DNA of 30,891 nucleotides from Chloroflexota bacterium. Its GTDB lineage: Bacteria; Chloroflexota; Dehalococcoidia; GIF9; UBA5629. The notes under the pieces are model-generated. The model was given only the letters and a program-made list of their open reading frames with translations. It did no database searches and had not been told where the DNA came from. The stretch lies in contig JAPLHM010000083.1 of assembly GCA_026389635.1 (NCBI GenBank), positions 1 to 30,891 of the forward strand. Direction: 5' to 3'. Positions 168 to 6,586 of this stretch are shown here, piece by piece (position 1 is the stretch's first letter; each line of letters starts with the position of its first letter). A program made the translations under genes and the position numbers.

Positions 168-288
168 TAGTACCGCTAATACAGATTGGGGCACACTGGC
201 GACCGGGCAGGATAGTTGCCCTGTTGTTCCAGGTTAAGGCATAATCTGATGATCAGGGACGATGAATATACGTCCAGGAGCACTAACC

Positions 289-1743
289 TTGTTTGAGCAG
301 GCCTTTAAGAACATTGACGACACGCTCCGTAAGGATGCCGGTTGCAGCAGCGAACTGGATTATGTGGAGCAAACATCGTGGATTCTCTTTCTGAAATACC
401 TGGATGATTTTGAGAAGGACAGGCAAACGGCGGCTGAACTGGCGGGCAGGGCATATAAGGGCATCATTAGCTCTGAGTACCGCTGGGAAGCATGGGCGGC
501 GCCCAAAGACAGCAACGGCAAATTAGATCATCATAACGCGCTCACCGGCGATGACCTGAAAGACTTCGTTGACAGCAAACTGTTTCCCTATATGAAGAGA
601 TTCAAAACCGACGCCCTGGGCCCGGACACCATCGAATACAAGATCGGTGAGATTTTCAGCGAGCTGAAAAACAAAATTCAGAGCGGCTACAACCTGCGCG
701 AGGTCATTAATCTTATCGAAGAACTCCGATTCGGTTCCCATGCCGAAAAGCACGAGATGTCGCACCTGTATGAAGACAAGATCAAAAACATGGGCAATGC
801 GGGCAGAAATGGCGGTGAATATTACACACCCCGCCCACTCATCAAGGCTATCGTTAGAGTCGTTGCGCCCACTATCGGCAACAAGGTCTATGACGGCGCG
901 CTCGGCTCGGCAGGCTTCCTAGCGGAGTCTTTTGAATACCTGAAAAACAGCAAGGACCTCACTACCAAAGATGCGGAAACCCTGCAGAAGAGCACCTTCT
1001 ACGGCAAGGAAAAGAAATCGCTGGCTTACATCATCGGCATCATGAATATGATCCTGCATGGCATCGAAGCTCCCAACGTTGTGCATACCAACACCCTGGC
1101 GGAAAACCTGGCCGATATCCAGGAAAAAGACCGCTTCGACATCGTCCTGGCCAATCCCCCTTTTGGCGGCAAGGAACGCGCCGAGGTGCAGCAGAACTTC
1201 CCTATCAAGACCGGTGAGACCGCTTTTCTCTTCCTCCAACATTTCATCAAAATACTCAAAGCAGGCGGCCGGGCAGGTGTGGTAATCAAGAATACCTTTC
1301 TATCCAATACTGACAATGCCTCAACCAGCCTCCGCAGGCTGTTGCTGGAAAGCTGCAACCTGCATACCGTGCTTGATTTGCCCGGCGGCGTCTTCGCCGG
1401 CGCGGGCGTTAAGACCGTGGTGCTCTTTTTTGATAAGGGCGCGCCCACCCGAAAAGTCTGGTTCTACCAGCTCAACCTGGACAGGAATCTTGGAAAGACC
1501 AACCCGCTGAACGAAGCTGATCTTGAGGATTTCGTAAAATTGCAGAAAACAAAAGCCGATTCAGACAATTCCTGGTCGGTGAATGTGGCGGATGTGGATA
1601 CCACTACCTGCGACCTGTCTGTGAAAAATCCGAATAAAAAGGATGAAACCGCCCTCAGAGATCCGCAAGAGATACTGGACGATATGCAGAGACTGGATGA
1701 GGAGAGCACGGAAATCCTGAGTACGATCAGGGAACTGGTATGA
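289..1743 (+). CDS. hsdM: Type I RM N6-adenine methyltransferase subunit M
   Basis: Motif I (VYDGALGSAGFL), motif IV NPPF, GEYYTPRPLI. Start moved from 262 to TTG at 289 because AGGAG at 276-280 precedes it and it gives the family-typical MFEQ N-terminus. Confidence 0.97.
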   Translation: MFEQAFKNIDDTLRKDAGCSSELDYVEQTSWILFLKYLDDFEKDRQTAAELAGRAYKGIISSEYRWEAWAAPKDSNGKLDHHNALTGDDLKDFVDSKLFPYMKRFKTDALGPDTIEYKIGEIFSELKNKIQSGYNLREVINLIEELRFGSHAEKHEMSHLYEDKIKNMGNAGRNGGEYYTPRPLIKAIVRVVAPTIGNKVYDGALGSAGFLAESFEYLKNSKDLTTKDAETLQKSTFYGKEKKSLAYIIGIMNMILHGIEAPNVVHTNTLAENLADIQEKDRFDIVLANPPFGGKERAEVQQNFPIKTGETAFLFLQHFIKILKAGGRAGVVIKNTFLSNTDNASTSLRRLLLESCNLHTVLDLPGGVFAGAGVKTVVLFFDKGAPTRKVWFYQLNLDRNLGKTNPLNEADLEDFVKLQKTKADSDNSWSVNVADVDTTTCDLSVKNPNKKDETALRDPQEILDDMQRLDEESTEILSTIRELV

Positions 1744-2819
1744 AGAAGGATTGGAAAGAGAAAAAGCTGGGTGAGGTTTGTGAGGTTCTGGACAGCAAGC
1801 GCAAACCAATAACTAAAAGAGACAGAACTGCCGGTGAGTACCCATATTATGGTGCAACAGGTATTTTAGATCACGTTCATGACTATATTTTCGACGAAAA
1901 ACTTATACTCATCGGGGAAGACGGCGCCAAATGGGGTCCAGGAGAAAATTCGGCATTTATTGCGGAAGGGAAATATTGGGTTAACAATCACGCACATGTT
2001 ATACGCCCTAATAGATCAATAGTATTGGACAACTGGATTGTTTACTTTCTGAATTTCAACGATTTGTCCAAATATGTGACAGGACTTACTGTCCCAAAAT
2101 TAAATCAAGAAAAAATGCGGGGGATTATTTTGCCAATCCCTCCTCTCTCCGAACAAAAGCGTACCGTCGCCATCCTGGATGAAGCCTTTGCCGCCATCGC
2201 CACGGTAAAAGAAAACGCCGAAAAGAACCTGCAAAACGCCCGCGCTCTATTTGAAAGTTATTTGGATGAAGCTGATGCAGATAAGGCTTGTCTCGGTGAC
2301 CTTGTTGATATAACAACAGGTAAGTTAGATGCAAATGCGGCTACAGAATGCGGAGAATATCCTTTCTTTACATGTTCCAGAGACATTTACAAAATTGACA
2401 AATATGCTTTCGATTGTGAAGCAATCCTATTGGCCGGGAACAACGCCGTAGGTGATTTTAATGTGAAGCACTACAATGGTAAATTTAATGCGTACCAGAG
2501 GACATATGTGATTACGGTAAATGAGAAAAAGCAAGTGCTGTATCGGTTTCTCTATTTCCAAATGTTGAAGAGCTTGAAGAAATTCAAAGACCAGTCAGTA
2601 GGTGCAGGGACCAAGTTTCTGAAACTTGGAATGATCAAAGATATGAAAATTGCGTTGCCAAGCCTTCCTGAACAGGGAATGATAGTTACTAATATGGATT
2701 CGCTACTTGAAGAAACCCAACACCTCGAGGTAATCTACCAGCAAAAGCTCGCCGCGCTGGAGGAGTTGAAAAAGTCGCTGCTACAAAAAGCCTTTAACGG
2801 AGAATTATTTGGAGAATGA
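1740..2819 (+). CDS. hsdS: Type I RM specificity subunit S, two target-recognition domains (TRDs), 359 aa
   Basis: ATGA overlap with hsdM stop; two PPLxEQ-type conserved regions (IPPLSEQ, LPSLPEQ); C-terminal LKKSLLQKAFNGEL. Confidence 0.95.
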   Translation: MKKDWKEKKLGEVCEVLDSKRKPITKRDRTAGEYPYYGATGILDHVHDYIFDEKLILIGEDGAKWGPGENSAFIAEGKYWVNNHAHVIRPNRSIVLDNWIVYFLNFNDLSKYVTGLTVPKLNQEKMRGIILPIPPLSEQKRTVAILDEAFAAIATVKENAEKNLQNARALFESYLDEADADKACLGDLVDITTGKLDANAATECGEYPFFTCSRDIYKIDKYAFDCEAILLAGNNAVGDFNVKHYNGKFNAYQRTYVITVNEKKQVLYRFLYFQMLKSLKKFKDQSVGAGTKFLKLGMIKDMKIALPSLPEQGMIVTNMDSLLEETQHLEVIYQQKLAALEELKKSLLQKAFNGELFGE

Positions 2820-2823
2820 AACC

Positions 2824-2838
2824 GTGACAAATTGTCAC
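2824..2838. repeat. Perfect 15-bp palindrome GTGACAA-A-TTGTCAC
   Basis: Read directly from the sequence. Confidence 0.9.
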
Positions 2839-2872
2839 AGTTTGAATATGGAAACGGTTTACCCATGTAAGC

Positions 2873-2890
2873 GGGGAACAATTTGTCCCC
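2873..2890. repeat. Imperfect palindrome GGGG(A)ACAA-T-TTGTCCCC
   Basis: Read directly; one bulged A; shares the ACAA-w-TTGT core with 2824-2838. Confidence 0.75.
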
Positions 2891-2971
2891 TGGTTGCTTG
2901 AAGCATTTTAAATAAGGACTTATAAAAATGATCAATTTAATACGAAAGCTGACAAACGAAGGGGTCAAATG

Positions 2972-2996
2972 AACTGTACGAAATTATCGTACAGTT
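2972..2996. repeat. Palindrome with 10-bp arms, AACTGTACGA-aatta-TCGTACAGTT
   Basis: Read directly; arms 2972-2981 and 2987-2996 are exact reverse complements. Confidence 0.9.
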
Positions 2997-3093
2997 AAAA
3001 AAGCGGCACCATGGTTTCAACAAGTGAGAATTATAAGGAGCTTCCCGAGATTAAGCGTAAAGCACTCAAGCGGAATAAAAAGGTTAAATAAGC

Positions 3094-5409
3094 ATGAATG
3101 AAGCGGAAACCAGGGCGGAACTGATCGACCCGAAGCTTAAACAGAGCGGTTGGGGTGTAGTCGAAGGCTCCAAAATCCTGCGCGAATACCAGATTACCGC
3201 CGGTAAAATCCAGACCGGAGGAGGGCGCGCCAAACCGCTGATAGCCGATTATGTGCTGGTTTACCAGGGACGCAAACTGGCGGCTATAGAAGCTAAGAGC
3301 ACTGAGCTTGAGGTCGGCGAGGGTGTAGCACAGGCTAAGAACTACGCTGAGAAAATGCGCCTTGCTTATACCTTTACCAGCAACGGCAAAGAGATTTACC
3401 AGATATGCATGCAAACCGGCGAAGAGGGTCTGATTTCCGCTTTCCCCACGCCGGATGACCTCTGGAAGAAAACCTTTGCCTCTCTTAATCTGTGGCTGGA
3501 CAAGTTTAACCAGGTACCATTTGAAGACATCGGCGGCACTAAGAAAGTGCATTACTACCAGGAGATAGCGGTCAACAATGCGATGGCAGCTATTGCGGAA
3601 GGAAAACCACGTATTCTGCTCACCCTGGCAACCGGAACGGGAAAAACCTTCATTGCTTTCCAGATTGCCTGGAAGCTTTTTCAGACCCGCTGGAACCTGA
3701 AACGCGATGGCGCCCGCAGGCCTCGTATCCTGTTCCTGGCAGATAGAAATAACCTGGCCGACCAGGCATTCAACGAGTTTCGCGCCTTCCCTGAAGATGC
3801 CCTGGTGCGGGTTAAGCCGGGGGAGATCAGCAAGCAAGGGAAGGTGCCTACCAACGGCAGTATTTTCTTTACCATCTTCCAGACCTTCATGAGTGGCAAG
3901 GATAACCAGCCTTATTTTGGACAGTATCCGCCCGACTATTTCGATTTTATTATTATCGATGAATGCCATCGTGGAGGTGCAAACGACGAAGGCAATTGGC
4001 GTGATATCATGGAGTATTTTGCTCCTGCCGTCCAGCTCGGTTTAACCGCGACGCCTAAGCGGTTAGAGAATGCGGATACCTATAAGTATTTCGGCGAGCC
4101 GGTGTATGTTTACTCGCTCAAAGAAGGCATTAACGACGGTTTCCTTACCCCTTTTAAGGTAAAGCGCATCCAGACCACGCTCGATGATTATGTCTATACG
4201 TCCGATGACCACATTATTGAAGGTGAGATCGAAGAAGGCAAACTCTATACAGAACCTGATTTCAACAGGATCATCGAGATTAAGGAGCGCGAAGCCAAAC
4301 GGGTAAAAATATTTCTTGCCGATGTCAATCAAACCGAGAAGAGCATTGTGTTTTGCGCTACCCAGGACCACGCGCTGGCCGTCAGGGATTTAATCAACCA
4401 GAACAAGAAAAGCAAGGAGCCCAATTACTGCGTACGCGTTACAGCCAACGACGGCGCTTTGGGCGATCAATACCTGGAGGAATTCAGGGATAATGAAAAG
4501 ACAATCCCGACCATTCTAACCACCTCACAAAAGCTTTCCACAGGCGTGGATGCCCGAAATATCAGAAATATCGTGCTGATGCGGCCGATCAACTCCATGA
4601 TCGAGTTCAAGCAGATAGTCGGCCGCGGGACACGGCTCTTTGATGGGAAAGAGTATTTCACTATCTATGATTTTGTGGACGCCTATCATCATTTCGCCGA
4701 CCCAGAATGGGATGGCGAACCGGTGGAACCTGAACCAAGACAGGAAAGAAAAACTGACATTAGCTCCAGGGAACCCGGTGGCCATTACGGTCCAACCGGT
4801 ACGGGCGACACAGAGAAAAAACAAAAGGTGAAGATTAAGCTGCGTGACGGTAAAGAACGCGAGATCCAATATATGATGTCTACCTCGTTTTGGAGCGTAG
4901 ACGGGCGGCCGATTTCAGCCGAAGAGTTTTTGCAAAACCTGTTTGGTACTTTGCCCGAATTCTTTAAAAGTGAAGATGAACTGCGTAGAATCTGGTCTGA
5001 TCCCGGCACGCGCAGGACACTGCTTGAAAGACTCGGCACTGCCGGTTATGGTAAGGGTATGCTGACAACGATACAAAGAATGATAGATGCCGAAAAAAGC
5101 GACCTGTTTGATGTGCTCGAATACATATCTTTCGCTGTAAAACCGATCACCCGGAAAACAAGGGTGGCCAGGGCACAGTCCCTCATATTCGCTCAAATGA
5201 ACCACCAACAGAAGGAGTTCCTGGAATTTGTTCTTTCCAAGTATATTGAAACCGGCGTCGAGGAACTTGATCAGGAAAAATTGCCCAATCTACTGACATT
5301 GAAATATCACGCGCTCGACGATGCTAAGAGAATACTGGGCGGTGTTGAGGACATCCGCAATATCTTTGTTGGTTTTCAGAAATACCTGTATATGGGCACA
5401 ACGGCGTAA
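3094..5409 (+). CDS. hsdR: Type I RM restriction subunit R (EcoAI/EcoEI-like)
   Basis: Nuclease motif ADYVLV...AIEAK, Walker A ATGTGKT, DECH box, LTATP, QIVGRGTR, helical C-terminal domain. Confidence 0.96.
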   Translation: MNEAETRAELIDPKLKQSGWGVVEGSKILREYQITAGKIQTGGGRAKPLIADYVLVYQGRKLAAIEAKSTELEVGEGVAQAKNYAEKMRLAYTFTSNGKEIYQICMQTGEEGLISAFPTPDDLWKKTFASLNLWLDKFNQVPFEDIGGTKKVHYYQEIAVNNAMAAIAEGKPRILLTLATGTGKTFIAFQIAWKLFQTRWNLKRDGARRPRILFLADRNNLADQAFNEFRAFPEDALVRVKPGEISKQGKVPTNGSIFFTIFQTFMSGKDNQPYFGQYPPDYFDFIIIDECHRGGANDEGNWRDIMEYFAPAVQLGLTATPKRLENADTYKYFGEPVYVYSLKEGINDGFLTPFKVKRIQTTLDDYVYTSDDHIIEGEIEEGKLYTEPDFNRIIEIKEREAKRVKIFLADVNQTEKSIVFCATQDHALAVRDLINQNKKSKEPNYCVRVTANDGALGDQYLEEFRDNEKTIPTILTTSQKLSTGVDARNIRNIVLMRPINSMIEFKQIVGRGTRLFDGKEYFTIYDFVDAYHHFADPEWDGEPVEPEPRQERKTDISSREPGGHYGPTGTGDTEKKQKVKIKLRDGKEREIQYMMSTSFWSVDGRPISAEEFLQNLFGTLPEFFKSEDELRRIWSDPGTRRTLLERLGTAGYGKGMLTTIQRMIDAEKSDLFDVLEYISFAVKPITRKTRVARAQSLIFAQMNHQQKEFLEFVLSKYIETGVEELDQEKLPNLLTLKYHALDDAKRILGGVEDIRNIFVGFQKYLYMGTTA

Positions 5410-5435: not shown

Positions 5436-6586
5436 TTAAAACTTCATCAATTTAGCTATTGAGCCATCGTCTTTAATCGGGCCGACAATCGCCAGGTTCA
5501 ATTTCTCCGTTTTAAACAAATCTCCAGCTATACGCTTTATATCTTCCATGGTGACATTTTCGATGACCTGTGTAACCTCGTCAATAGTCATGATCTTGCC
5601 CGTCAGTACCTCCTGTCCACCGTACCAGCTGGCTACATTGTAGCTGTTCTCCATTCTGAGCAGTAACGAACCCTTGGCCATCTCCCTGACTTTCTTCAAT
5701 TCGGCATCGGATATGCCATCCCTGATAACGGCCAGTTGATGTAAAATACCCTTATTTCCGTAAATAGCCGGCTGCTCATGCCCACACCCAGTATCATATT
5801 AAGCAAATACACTGCAAACCTGTCGGGATGGAAAACGGATGGCGCTTCGACTCCCAGCACCAGGTTTACCTGCTCGGTTTCACGATACTCGATTTTCGTC
5901 CTCGGAACGGCCTGCTCAATAATGCTGTCCCTGTACCCCGGAACTATACCCCCCTGCCAGTCCGCGGTAGCCTGCCGGATTAGTTCAATCGCTTTTTCGG
6001 TTTCAAAATTGCCCGCTATACTCACCAGCATGTTACCGGTTGTATAGCAGTTGTTGAGGTAATGCAGCATCTGCTCATGCGTAATAGCACTGACCGTCTC
6101 TTTGCTGCCCGCGATATCCCTGCCCAGCGCTTTCCCCGGCCACATCAGTTCGTCGAATATCATGCCCACGCGCTGCTGCGGGGAATCAAGGCTCATGTTG
6201 ATCTCTTCGATGATAACCTGCCTTTCCTTATCCACATCCTCTGCACGGAAGAGCGGGTTGCGCAGCAGGTCAACAATCACGTCGACCGCCATTTCAAAAT
6301 GCTGGCTGGCCAGCTTGCAATAATAAGAAGTGACCTCGCGGTCGGTGCCCCCATTCATGATGCCCCCCACACCTTCGATGGCCTCGCTTATCTCGTTGGA
6401 TGTCGGCCTCTTACCGGTGCCTTTGAAACACATATGCTCAACGAAGTGCGATATGCCCGCCTCTTCATCCCTCTCGTAACAGCTCCCTGCCTTGACAAAA
6501 AACAACACGGATACCGACCTGGTATGCGGCATGGGGCAGGTAATGATTTCCAGTCCGTTATCGAGGGTGTCTTTCTTATATTCCAT
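5436..6586 (-). pseudogene. M16 (pitrilysin/insulinase) family zinc peptidase, split by an internal deletion with frameshift near 5748-5750
   Basis: HFVEH zinc motif is intact. The frame breaks after SSRLFTEIR; a second frame resumes as ILHQLAVIRDGISDAELKKVREMAKG and runs into ORF 5436-5699. The span is 1151 nt, not a multiple of 3. Confidence 0.85.

Follow-up and report, generated by a model that had tools for sequence, protein, structure and literature searches.

The hsdS-hsdR Spacer of a Type I Restriction-Modification Locus

The window, i.e., the whole stretch of 30,891 nucleotides analysed here, carries a type I restriction-modification (RM) locus in which the genes for HsdM, HsdS and HsdR are adjacent, all matched by Pfam profiles, and all three reading frames are open. 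A spacer of 274 bp lies between hsdS and hsdR, and three short pieces of sequence, referred to below as relics 1 to 3, are found in or at the edge of it. The features, all on the forward strand, are arranged as follows:

262 to 1743, forward strand: hsdM, methylase subunit of the type I system, intact (Pfam N6_Mtase, 1.1e-62, and HsdM_N)
1740 to 2819, forward strand: hsdS, specificity subunit, intact (Pfam Methylase_S, 1.6e-49)
2815 to 2850, forward strand: relic 1, 36 nt, the 'VTNCH' version (palindrome core 2824-2838, extended 2822-2840)
2873 to 2896, forward strand: relic 2, 24 nt, the 'GTICP' version (palindrome 2874-2891, with G-to-A damage)
2897 to 2941, forward strand: leader, AAGGA ribosome-binding site and the first 13 nt of the recently lost gene (ATG at 2929), forming the left edge of deletion 1
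2942 to 2996, forward strand: middle piece of relic 3, 55 nt, the 'LYEIIVQL' version, matching codons ~47-66 of the gene P0001 (L003:678-1514, reverse strand)
2997 to 3073, forward strand: 3' piece of relic 3, the last ~25 codons (...STSENYKELPEIKRKALK), aligning to the 3' ends of the gene in the genomes G016 and G134
3094 to 5409, forward strand: hsdR, restriction subunit with an EcoEI-type C-terminus, intact (Pfam ResIII, 8.4e-39, EcoEI_R_C, 2.3e-28, and HSDR_N)

An initial annotation of this DNA had drawn attention to three palindromes with AT-rich centres within about 175 bp, and all of them are present, that is, GTGACAA-A-TTGTCAC at 2824-2838, which has one mismatch when extended to 2822-2840, GGGG(A)ACAA-T-TTGTCCCC at 2874-2891, and AACTGTACGA-aatta-TCGTACAGTT at 2972-2996, in which the 10-nt arms are perfect (10+5+10). 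The peptides that had been read from them, TVTNCHSL, GTICPL and ELYEIIVQL, do lie in one forward frame, with the codons phased from 2791, and the translations run ...NETVTNCHSLNM... in relic 1, ...GTICPLVA* in relic 2 and ...NELYEIIVQLKK... in relic 3.

The spacer is AT-rich, with 37.6% G+C against 55% in the window, and AT-rich spacers commonly hold short palindromes, which means that chance, or ordinary intergenic elements such as terminators or REP-like repeats unrelated to any gene, has to be considered as the source of these structures. Palindromes with arms of at least 7 nt and loops of up to 5 nt have a background of 0.55 per kb over the whole window, and two in the spacer conform to this definition, in addition to a third, which is imperfect. 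The spacer was simulated 2000 times under a Markov-1 model, which gave a probability of 0.017 for at least two such palindromes and one of 0.0035 for an arm of at least 10 nt. The spacer is also single-copy, given that no second copy was found elsewhere in its own genome, an intact orthologous gene occupies the same site in a relative, and the relics match intact genes base for base at the position of a palindrome in those genes. The four-genome alignments and the intact-gene matches described below refute an origin by chance or as ordinary palindromes, the probability of which is next to nil.

A Gutted Bro-N Gene Between hsdS and hsdR

The genome of the window (G000) was aligned over the site with three further genomes of the same family which share it (G007, G016 and G134); in G007 and G016, the site also adjoins the same M16 peptidase gene, and a broader search of 400 genomes of the class returned G134 as the sole further genome with the site. 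The M16 peptidase frame of the window itself (5696-6586, reverse strand) has 296 aa, against 403-418 aa in G007, and may be truncated or frameshifted in the assembly.

In the sister genome G016, the site holds an intact open gene of 278 aa, P0001, which contains ...SEGLNELYEIIVQLKLEAEDGK... and has the C-terminal end ...NENYKELPEIKHKALK. When compared with this gene, the window lacks the 123 nt that come after codon 5, following ...TTTAAT (deletion 1), and ~560 nt beginning at 2996/2997, i.e., 0-5 nt past the palindrome (deletion 2), leaving the start of the gene (2929-2941), the 55 nt of the middle piece and the last 77 nt, in which the orthologous stop codon is mutated. Palindrome 3 is, then, the internal palindrome of a PDC-S13/DinD-like Bro-N gene that was gutted here by two deletions. 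An independent deletion in G007 also starts at the palindrome's 3' edge, to within 1 nt, and G134 has a third, different deletion, which lies between 9-nt direct repeats and farther downstream. The comparison of the hsdS-hsdR gap among relatives thus yields an intact gene in one genome and differing deletions in the other three, and the spacer is a worn-out passenger-gene slot between hsdS and hsdR. Palindrome 3 is the youngest of the three copies in the spacer, and only one of its 25 columns varies among the four genomes, against six of 29 in the flank.

The decay of the locus has taken different courses in these genomes. In G016, it is the reverse of that in the window, with the Bro-N/PDC-S13 gene intact and hsdR absent (L003:1623-2450 and L003:678-1514, both on the reverse strand), and a stump remains in which the N-terminus of hsdM is fused, without a change of frame, with the final codons of hsdS. 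G000 has kept open RM genes beside a dead passenger. The passenger of G134 is dead as well, with the 3' end of hsdS upstream and the start of hsdR downstream.

The identity of the lost gene was taken from the intact orthologue. P0001 scores 45.4 bits with the Pfam Bro-N profile (PF02498), against a gathering cut-off of 25.6, and residues 3-275 align to positions 6-275 of the 286 positions of the PADLOC profile PDC-S13 (E 3.8e-122), a phage-defence candidate family that combines a Bro-N N-terminal part with a DinD-like C-terminal part. The orthologue matches this family over its full length, whereas the window keeps three scraps only, which are too short for profile scoring and were assigned to Bro-N by orthology. 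DinD itself was considered and rejected, given that the score of P0001 with the DinD equivalog NF008573 of NCBIfam is 18.9 bits, over the C-terminal part only and below the cut-off of 242, which makes P0001 a distant relative, just as the DinD of Escherichia coli is a distant relative of PDC-S13.

Homologues were sampled at 80 loci from genomes, 76 of which were usable, and at 80 from viral contigs, which resulted in 156 intact homologues. A general link between the family and type I RM loci is not supported, as type I genes were found by tblastn, with the HsdM, HsdS and HsdR of the window as queries, beside two of the 80 genomic homologues and none of the 80 on viral contigs. The neighbours of the sampled homologues include MmeI-type enzymes, helicases, housekeeping genes and one tandem paralogue.

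Two Older Scraps Upstream of the Lost Gene

The palindrome of this family was defined by its place at codons ~55-67, which lie 165-200 nt from the start of the gene, between the flanks ...EG-N/S-E... and ...LK(L/M)..., and all three relics conform to this definition, relic 3 through its position in the orthologue and relics 1 and 2 through their matches. For example, relic 1 matches the intact genes L099-L104 at 31 of 32 nt and L022 at 24 of 24, and the G007 copy of relic 2 matches the intact gene L047 at 24 of 24 nt, at a gene offset of 172; the matches of both relics always fall 165-200 nt into the intact genes, which is the position of the family palindrome. The peptides ETVTNCHGLK, GTICPPL and EVYEKIVQLK, which the initial annotation gave for Bro-N-like proteins, also exist in intact members, as NETVTNCHGLKM (L022), WGTICPPLKL (L023) and NEVYEKIVQLKM (L134), and these matches support its suggestion that the three peptides of the spacer represent a single hypervariable segment of Bro-N proteins in alternative forms.

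The stop codon of hsdS (TGA, 2817-2819) lies inside relic 1 and overlaps its AAT-GAA codons. In relic 2, the odd A of the palindrome is, by comparison with relatives, a G-to-A substitution in a once-perfect 8+8 palindrome, and a bulge as its cause is ruled out by the sequences of the relatives. Both relics are present in all four related genomes and, being common to them, predate the loss of the gene. Judged from these alignments, relics 1 and 2 represent older scraps, near-identical to the palindrome spot in other versions of the family, and what the spacer holds is, as had been proposed, left over from successive versions that lost their coding bodies by deletion, given the four-genome alignments together with the matches to intact genes.

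Metagenome contigs aligned to the window provide a separate view of relic 1. A peak of contig depth is observed on 2815-2850 in four unrelated metagenomes (runs X4, X5, X6 and X10), and the stretch of ~36 nt is common to the intact genes of other organisms at an identity of at least 85%, with differing flanks. The likeness of these intact genes to the window begins at 2815 and ends at 2850, and the contigs piled on 2810-2850 continue as ...RLKEEG codons before 2815 and as ...AADGKMRL codons after 2850. Given that the flanks differ outside 2815-2850, the contigs are intact genes of other organisms which share this short stretch alone, and a shared stretch of ~36 nt with differing flanks indicates that the palindrome segment is far more conserved, as DNA and across taxa, than the genes that surround it. 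No joints were found in the metagenome contigs aligned to the window, contigs being the only material searched.

The initial annotation had also supposed that the spacer preserves a stack of operators, and this supposition fares badly. Seven of the 19 columns of relic 2 vary among the four genomes without compensation, and the copy is decaying in three of the four, while the two variable columns of the 19 in relic 1 are single, uncompensated differences. Such decay of orphan copies, set against the constraint on the palindrome in intact genes, fits relics that have lost a constraint acting in the intact gene only, and argues against a preserved stack. There is no supporting signal of transcription either, given that the spacer region has two promoter-like sites against 1.0 expected, neither suitably positioned, which is no excess over background, and that no terminator-like site, i.e., a G+C-rich stem followed by a run of T, was found in 2600-3300. 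We infer that the three palindromes of the spacer are inert relics, and neither operators nor a working system. The relics themselves are ordinary; it is their parent element that is unusual, and apparently undescribed.

A Palindrome Kept at One Codon Position

Among the intact homologues, all 76 usable genomic sequences have a perfect palindrome within the aligned codons ~50-70. Its arms are 5-17 nt long, and the short ones reach ~15 nt when one mismatch is allowed. The palindrome, which is hairpin-forming with stems of 6-17 bp, is kept at a single codon position in ~150 of the 156 homologues, which come from bacterial and archaeal genome bins and from viral contigs. Its mean arm of 9.8 nt compares with 4.3 nt in synonymous-codon shuffles of the same peptides, so that the segment is indeed palindrome-encoded, as the initial annotation had it, and with 4.0 nt in other windows of the same genes, and in 69 of 74 members of the genomic set it ranks first in length among the palindromes of the gene. 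Similar results were obtained from the viral contigs, which have 40 distinct palindromes with a mean arm of 9.1 nt, the longest of the gene in 70 of 80 cases.

The arms change in concert. The pairs at 3-8 nt from the centre are Watson-Crick in 92-100% of the sequences, with two to four pair types each, those at positions 11, 12 and 14 in 88-100%, and the total pairing of 87.6% compares with 18-37% after the partner has been shifted by 1-3 nt. There is conservation but no covariation in the central AAWTT, and the structure supported is therefore a stem with an AT-rich centre of 5 nt. The same palindrome can, in addition, be read in two frames, given that GGGTACAA-a-TTGTACCC encodes WVQIVP and GGGTACAA-t-TTGTACCC encodes GTICT. 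The covariation of the arms and the use of one palindrome in two reading frames indicate that selection acts on the nucleic acid, which the peptide follows, in keeping with the earlier proposal that the segment is diversified as a DNA unit. Inversion of the loop leaves no signal, as only five of 49 pairs of centres on identical stems are reverse-complementary.

A role in RNA would account for part of this pattern. The palindrome of the intact gene would, in this case, form a stem-loop in the mRNA which contributes to its stability, processing or translation, and the hairpins of the spacer, which sit inside an operon-like gene order, would be REP-like intercistronic stabilisers or attenuators that set the ratio of hsdMS to hsdR. 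The covariation fits a stem with a loop of 5 nt rather than pairing through the centre, relic 1 is fairly conserved, and the mismatches in the stems include 29 G:T against 14 A:C, an imbalance that leans slightly towards a sense-strand RNA or a single-strand structure. This excess, on the other hand, comes mostly from one or two clades, and the counts are phylogenetically non-independent. A centre of A and T only is atypical for stable RNA loops, no Rfam match was found up to E = 1 in 2600-3300, a region that also lacks terminator-like sites as noted above, and the decay of relic 2 speaks against a maintained hairpin in the spacer. The locus was, in addition, found in no RNA run. A function in RNA is, on balance, improbable.

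Several loci in the sample present irregularities at or near the palindrome. At L075 (2950-3010), a scaffold gap (a run of N) falls exactly at the position of the palindrome, between two unlike palindromes of the family, GGGGTACAA-t-TTGTACC... and GGGGGCAA-a-TTGCC..., a situation that could result from strain heterogeneity, from a tandem duplication of the segment or from a failure of the assembly at the hairpin. A member of the G8/C8 class at L072 (2930-2965) is frameshifted within the palindrome, with a C10 tract and an altered centre, and the homopolymer arms of this class could slip in the manner of a phase-variable tract. At L089 (2740-2950), a duplication of the final ~25 codons of an MmeI/Eco57I-type methylase gene lies directly upstream of the Bro-N gene, with the duplicates ending in ...LYGLTEEEIKIVEGI and ...LYGLTEDEVKIVEGV and a palindrome with 14-bp arms between the copies, an arrangement which looks like the footprint of an insertion or replacement. 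Tandem Bro-N paralogues with differing palindromes are found at L078 (2013-2861 and 2989-3822), and a decayed third palindrome lies 33-48 nt upstream of the first paralogue (L078:1930-1979), which may be the living precursor state of a stack such as that of the window. Finally, N-terminal fragments of other versions of the gene, palindrome included, are present at L052 (1951-2170) and L058 (1-180), 0.9-1.1 kb upstream of an intact copy; they end ~25 codons past the palindrome, and that of L058 precedes an unrelated open reading frame.

The Palindrome in the Middle of a Swapped Block

An AlphaFold model of the protein, built from 46 sequences (pLDDT 88), consists, in order, of a beta-hairpin, the helices H27-34 and H40-53, a short helix H58-62, a wing (E64-69 and E75-81) and a helical C-terminal domain. 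The palindrome is predicted to encode the short helix H58-62, between the basic helix H40-53 and the wing. The sole clear structural match is DdrC of Deinococcus radiodurans (PDB 7qvb, 7udi and 8u0g), a dimeric protein that binds DNA breaks, with a Foldseek E of 5e-7 and a VIA-align Z of 11.8 over 212 residues, or 8.3 for the N-terminal winged-helix domain. Both proteins present the same layout, i.e., an N-terminal beta-hairpin and winged helix-turn-helix followed by a helical C-terminal domain, and the likeness is one of fold only, at a sequence identity of 12-14%. A coding palindrome is not known from ddrC.

The identity of residues 38-80 between homologues is uncorrelated with that of the rest of the protein (Spearman -0.03). 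For example, L014 and L015 are 78% identical before this block, 17% inside it and 88% after it, and there are 285 pairs in which the backbone is at least 75% identical and the block at most 35%, while pairs with the reverse pattern also occur. In the model, this block of ~43 codons, with the palindrome at its middle, spans H40-53 as the second helix, the linker and the wing of a DdrC-like winged-helix domain. By these identity profiles, it is exchanged between genes that elsewhere share up to 88% identity.

The position of the palindrome in a winged-helix domain, after the second helix and before the wing, recalls an operator, that is, a site to which a DNA-binding protein would attach as a dimer, and this protein may be encoded by the gene itself. 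The stack in the spacer would, in this case, be kept to regulate hsdR or the slot. The basic H40-53 would suit this reading, as would the ACAA-W-TTGT core common to several versions, and a swapped block would carry the reader and its site together. The stems vary freely, however, while H40-53 remains constant within a class, which argues against sequence-specific reading, and the central pairs lack covariation. In the window, each of the three palindromes is of a different class and no cognate protein is left, relic 2 is decaying as described above, and the promoter-like sites in the gap do not rise above background. The N-terminal domain of DdrC is a winged helix-turn-helix after a beta-hairpin, and its winged-helix surface is acidic, unlike the basic H40-53 found here, with the authors arguing against its binding DNA (PMC9303277). 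An operator is therefore an unlikely explanation of the palindrome.

A DNA Hairpin as a Possible Site of Breakage and Exchange

The origin of palindrome 3, the older scraps, the family-wide palindrome and the swapped block can, taken jointly, be accepted with high confidence. A wrecked slot that holds three relic versions of an element with a DNA hairpin is probably the best explanation of the locus as a whole. The mechanism proposed for it is more tentative: the coding palindrome would act as a DNA hairpin or cruciform, which would be a preferred end point both for deletions and for the exchange of the ~43-codon block. Were the hairpin to draw end points in this manner, the scraps that outlive the gene would be palindromes.

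This reading rests on the end points of the deletions, the survival of the palindromes, their AT-rich centre and the position of the hairpin in the middle of the mosaic block. If 24-55 nt were left from the interior of a gene of 837 nt, they would include the palindrome by chance in ~3% of cases, and here this has happened three times. Two of ~10 independent end points in the four genomes lie 0-5 nt from the hairpin's 3' edge (P ~0.01, calculated post hoc), while the deletion of G134 and deletion 1 of the window do not end at it. AT-rich centres favour the extrusion of cruciforms, as reported by Lilley, and palindromes attract the end points of deletions, as reported by Glickman and Ripley in 1984. 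Linkage combined with diversifying selection on the protein surface could, however, yield a mosaic block without any such hot spot. The recombination hot spot suggested in the initial annotation thus receives weak support from the two deletion ends at the 3' edge and from the mosaic block, and a hot spot of DNA structure for both deletions and exchanges is plausible, at somewhat below even chances.

Deletion and template-switch mutagenesis at palindromes and quasi-palindromes is known from the work of Glickman and Ripley (1984), Ripley (1982) and Lovett's laboratory. The features shared with the present case are deletions that end at the base of the hairpin, microhomology at the junctions and arms that evolve in concert. 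Such sites are accidental hot spots, whereas the palindrome of this family is kept at one codon position, and the single mismatches in the relics are, in contrast to those cases, not quickly corrected.

The upstream position of relics 1 and 2 also raises the possibility that they are silent cassettes, i.e., donor copies used to switch the specificity block of the expressed gene. Gene conversion of this type, initiated by a DNA structure and fed by silent cassettes, is known from pilE of Neisseria, with its G-quadruplex and the pilS copies, and from vlsE of Borrelia, which likewise have a non-B structure beside or in a hypervariable block and short non-expressed copies upstream. The relics lie directly upstream of the gene and in the same orientation, they belong to the classes of the nearest backbones (L015, L022 and L023), and family-type short palindromes are found 16-170 nt upstream of other intact genes, at L042, L078 and L081-L083, which are comparable to the relics, and at L088. 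The four genomes share one expressed palindrome, however, which indicates that there has been no switching at a divergence of ~10%, and relic 2 is decaying, so that the relics do not behave as members of a silent-cassette system. The flanking homology, just 6-18 nt, is also very short in comparison with the known systems, no recombinase or other dedicated machinery was seen among the neighbours scanned, and the nearest backbones with other cassettes (L015, L016, L022, L023, L025 and L062) have no upstream copies. Donor copies of this kind are thus quite improbable here.

A hairpin that is kept for a purpose is a further reading, which would place a cruciform in the linker of the PDC-S13 recognition module, either as the starter of block exchange or as the structure-specific site of the gene's own product. 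In the former case, the structure would initiate gene conversion of the ~43-codon specificity block between genes, and in the latter, the site would be transferred together with its reader in a single cassette. On this view, the short copies found upstream, in the window and elsewhere, would have arisen from such exchanges as by-products or archives. The odds are clearly against this reading. The attC sites of integrons offer a partial parallel, as in both cases the structure is conserved while the sequence varies, and in both it is tied to the exchange of a unit the size of a gene or block. The attC sites, however, lie outside the coding sequence, at the ends of cassettes, contain extrahelical bases and need IntI, whereas the hairpin of this family is perfect, short and in frame inside a domain.

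Implications for the Bro-N/PDC-S13 Family

The Bro-N/PDC-S13 family is already known as a defence candidate, and it is its coding hairpin that is apparently undescribed. No published description of the coding palindrome was found in the literature searched, part of which was obscured by unrelated "Clavien-Dindo" papers.

In this widespread family of defence candidates, a nucleic-acid hairpin is retained at a single codon position, under selection strong enough to dictate, and to keep rewriting, the residues between the second helix and the wing of a domain of DNA-binding type. The window and its relatives form a natural deletion series across four genomes, in which the positions of the breaks can be compared with that of the hairpin and orphan copies are seen to decay, and this series constrains the functions that the hairpin may have. 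If the hairpin drives exchange, it would be a simple and portable way to diversify a recognition surface, and if it is bound by the product of its own gene, it would constitute a self-contained unit of reader and site.
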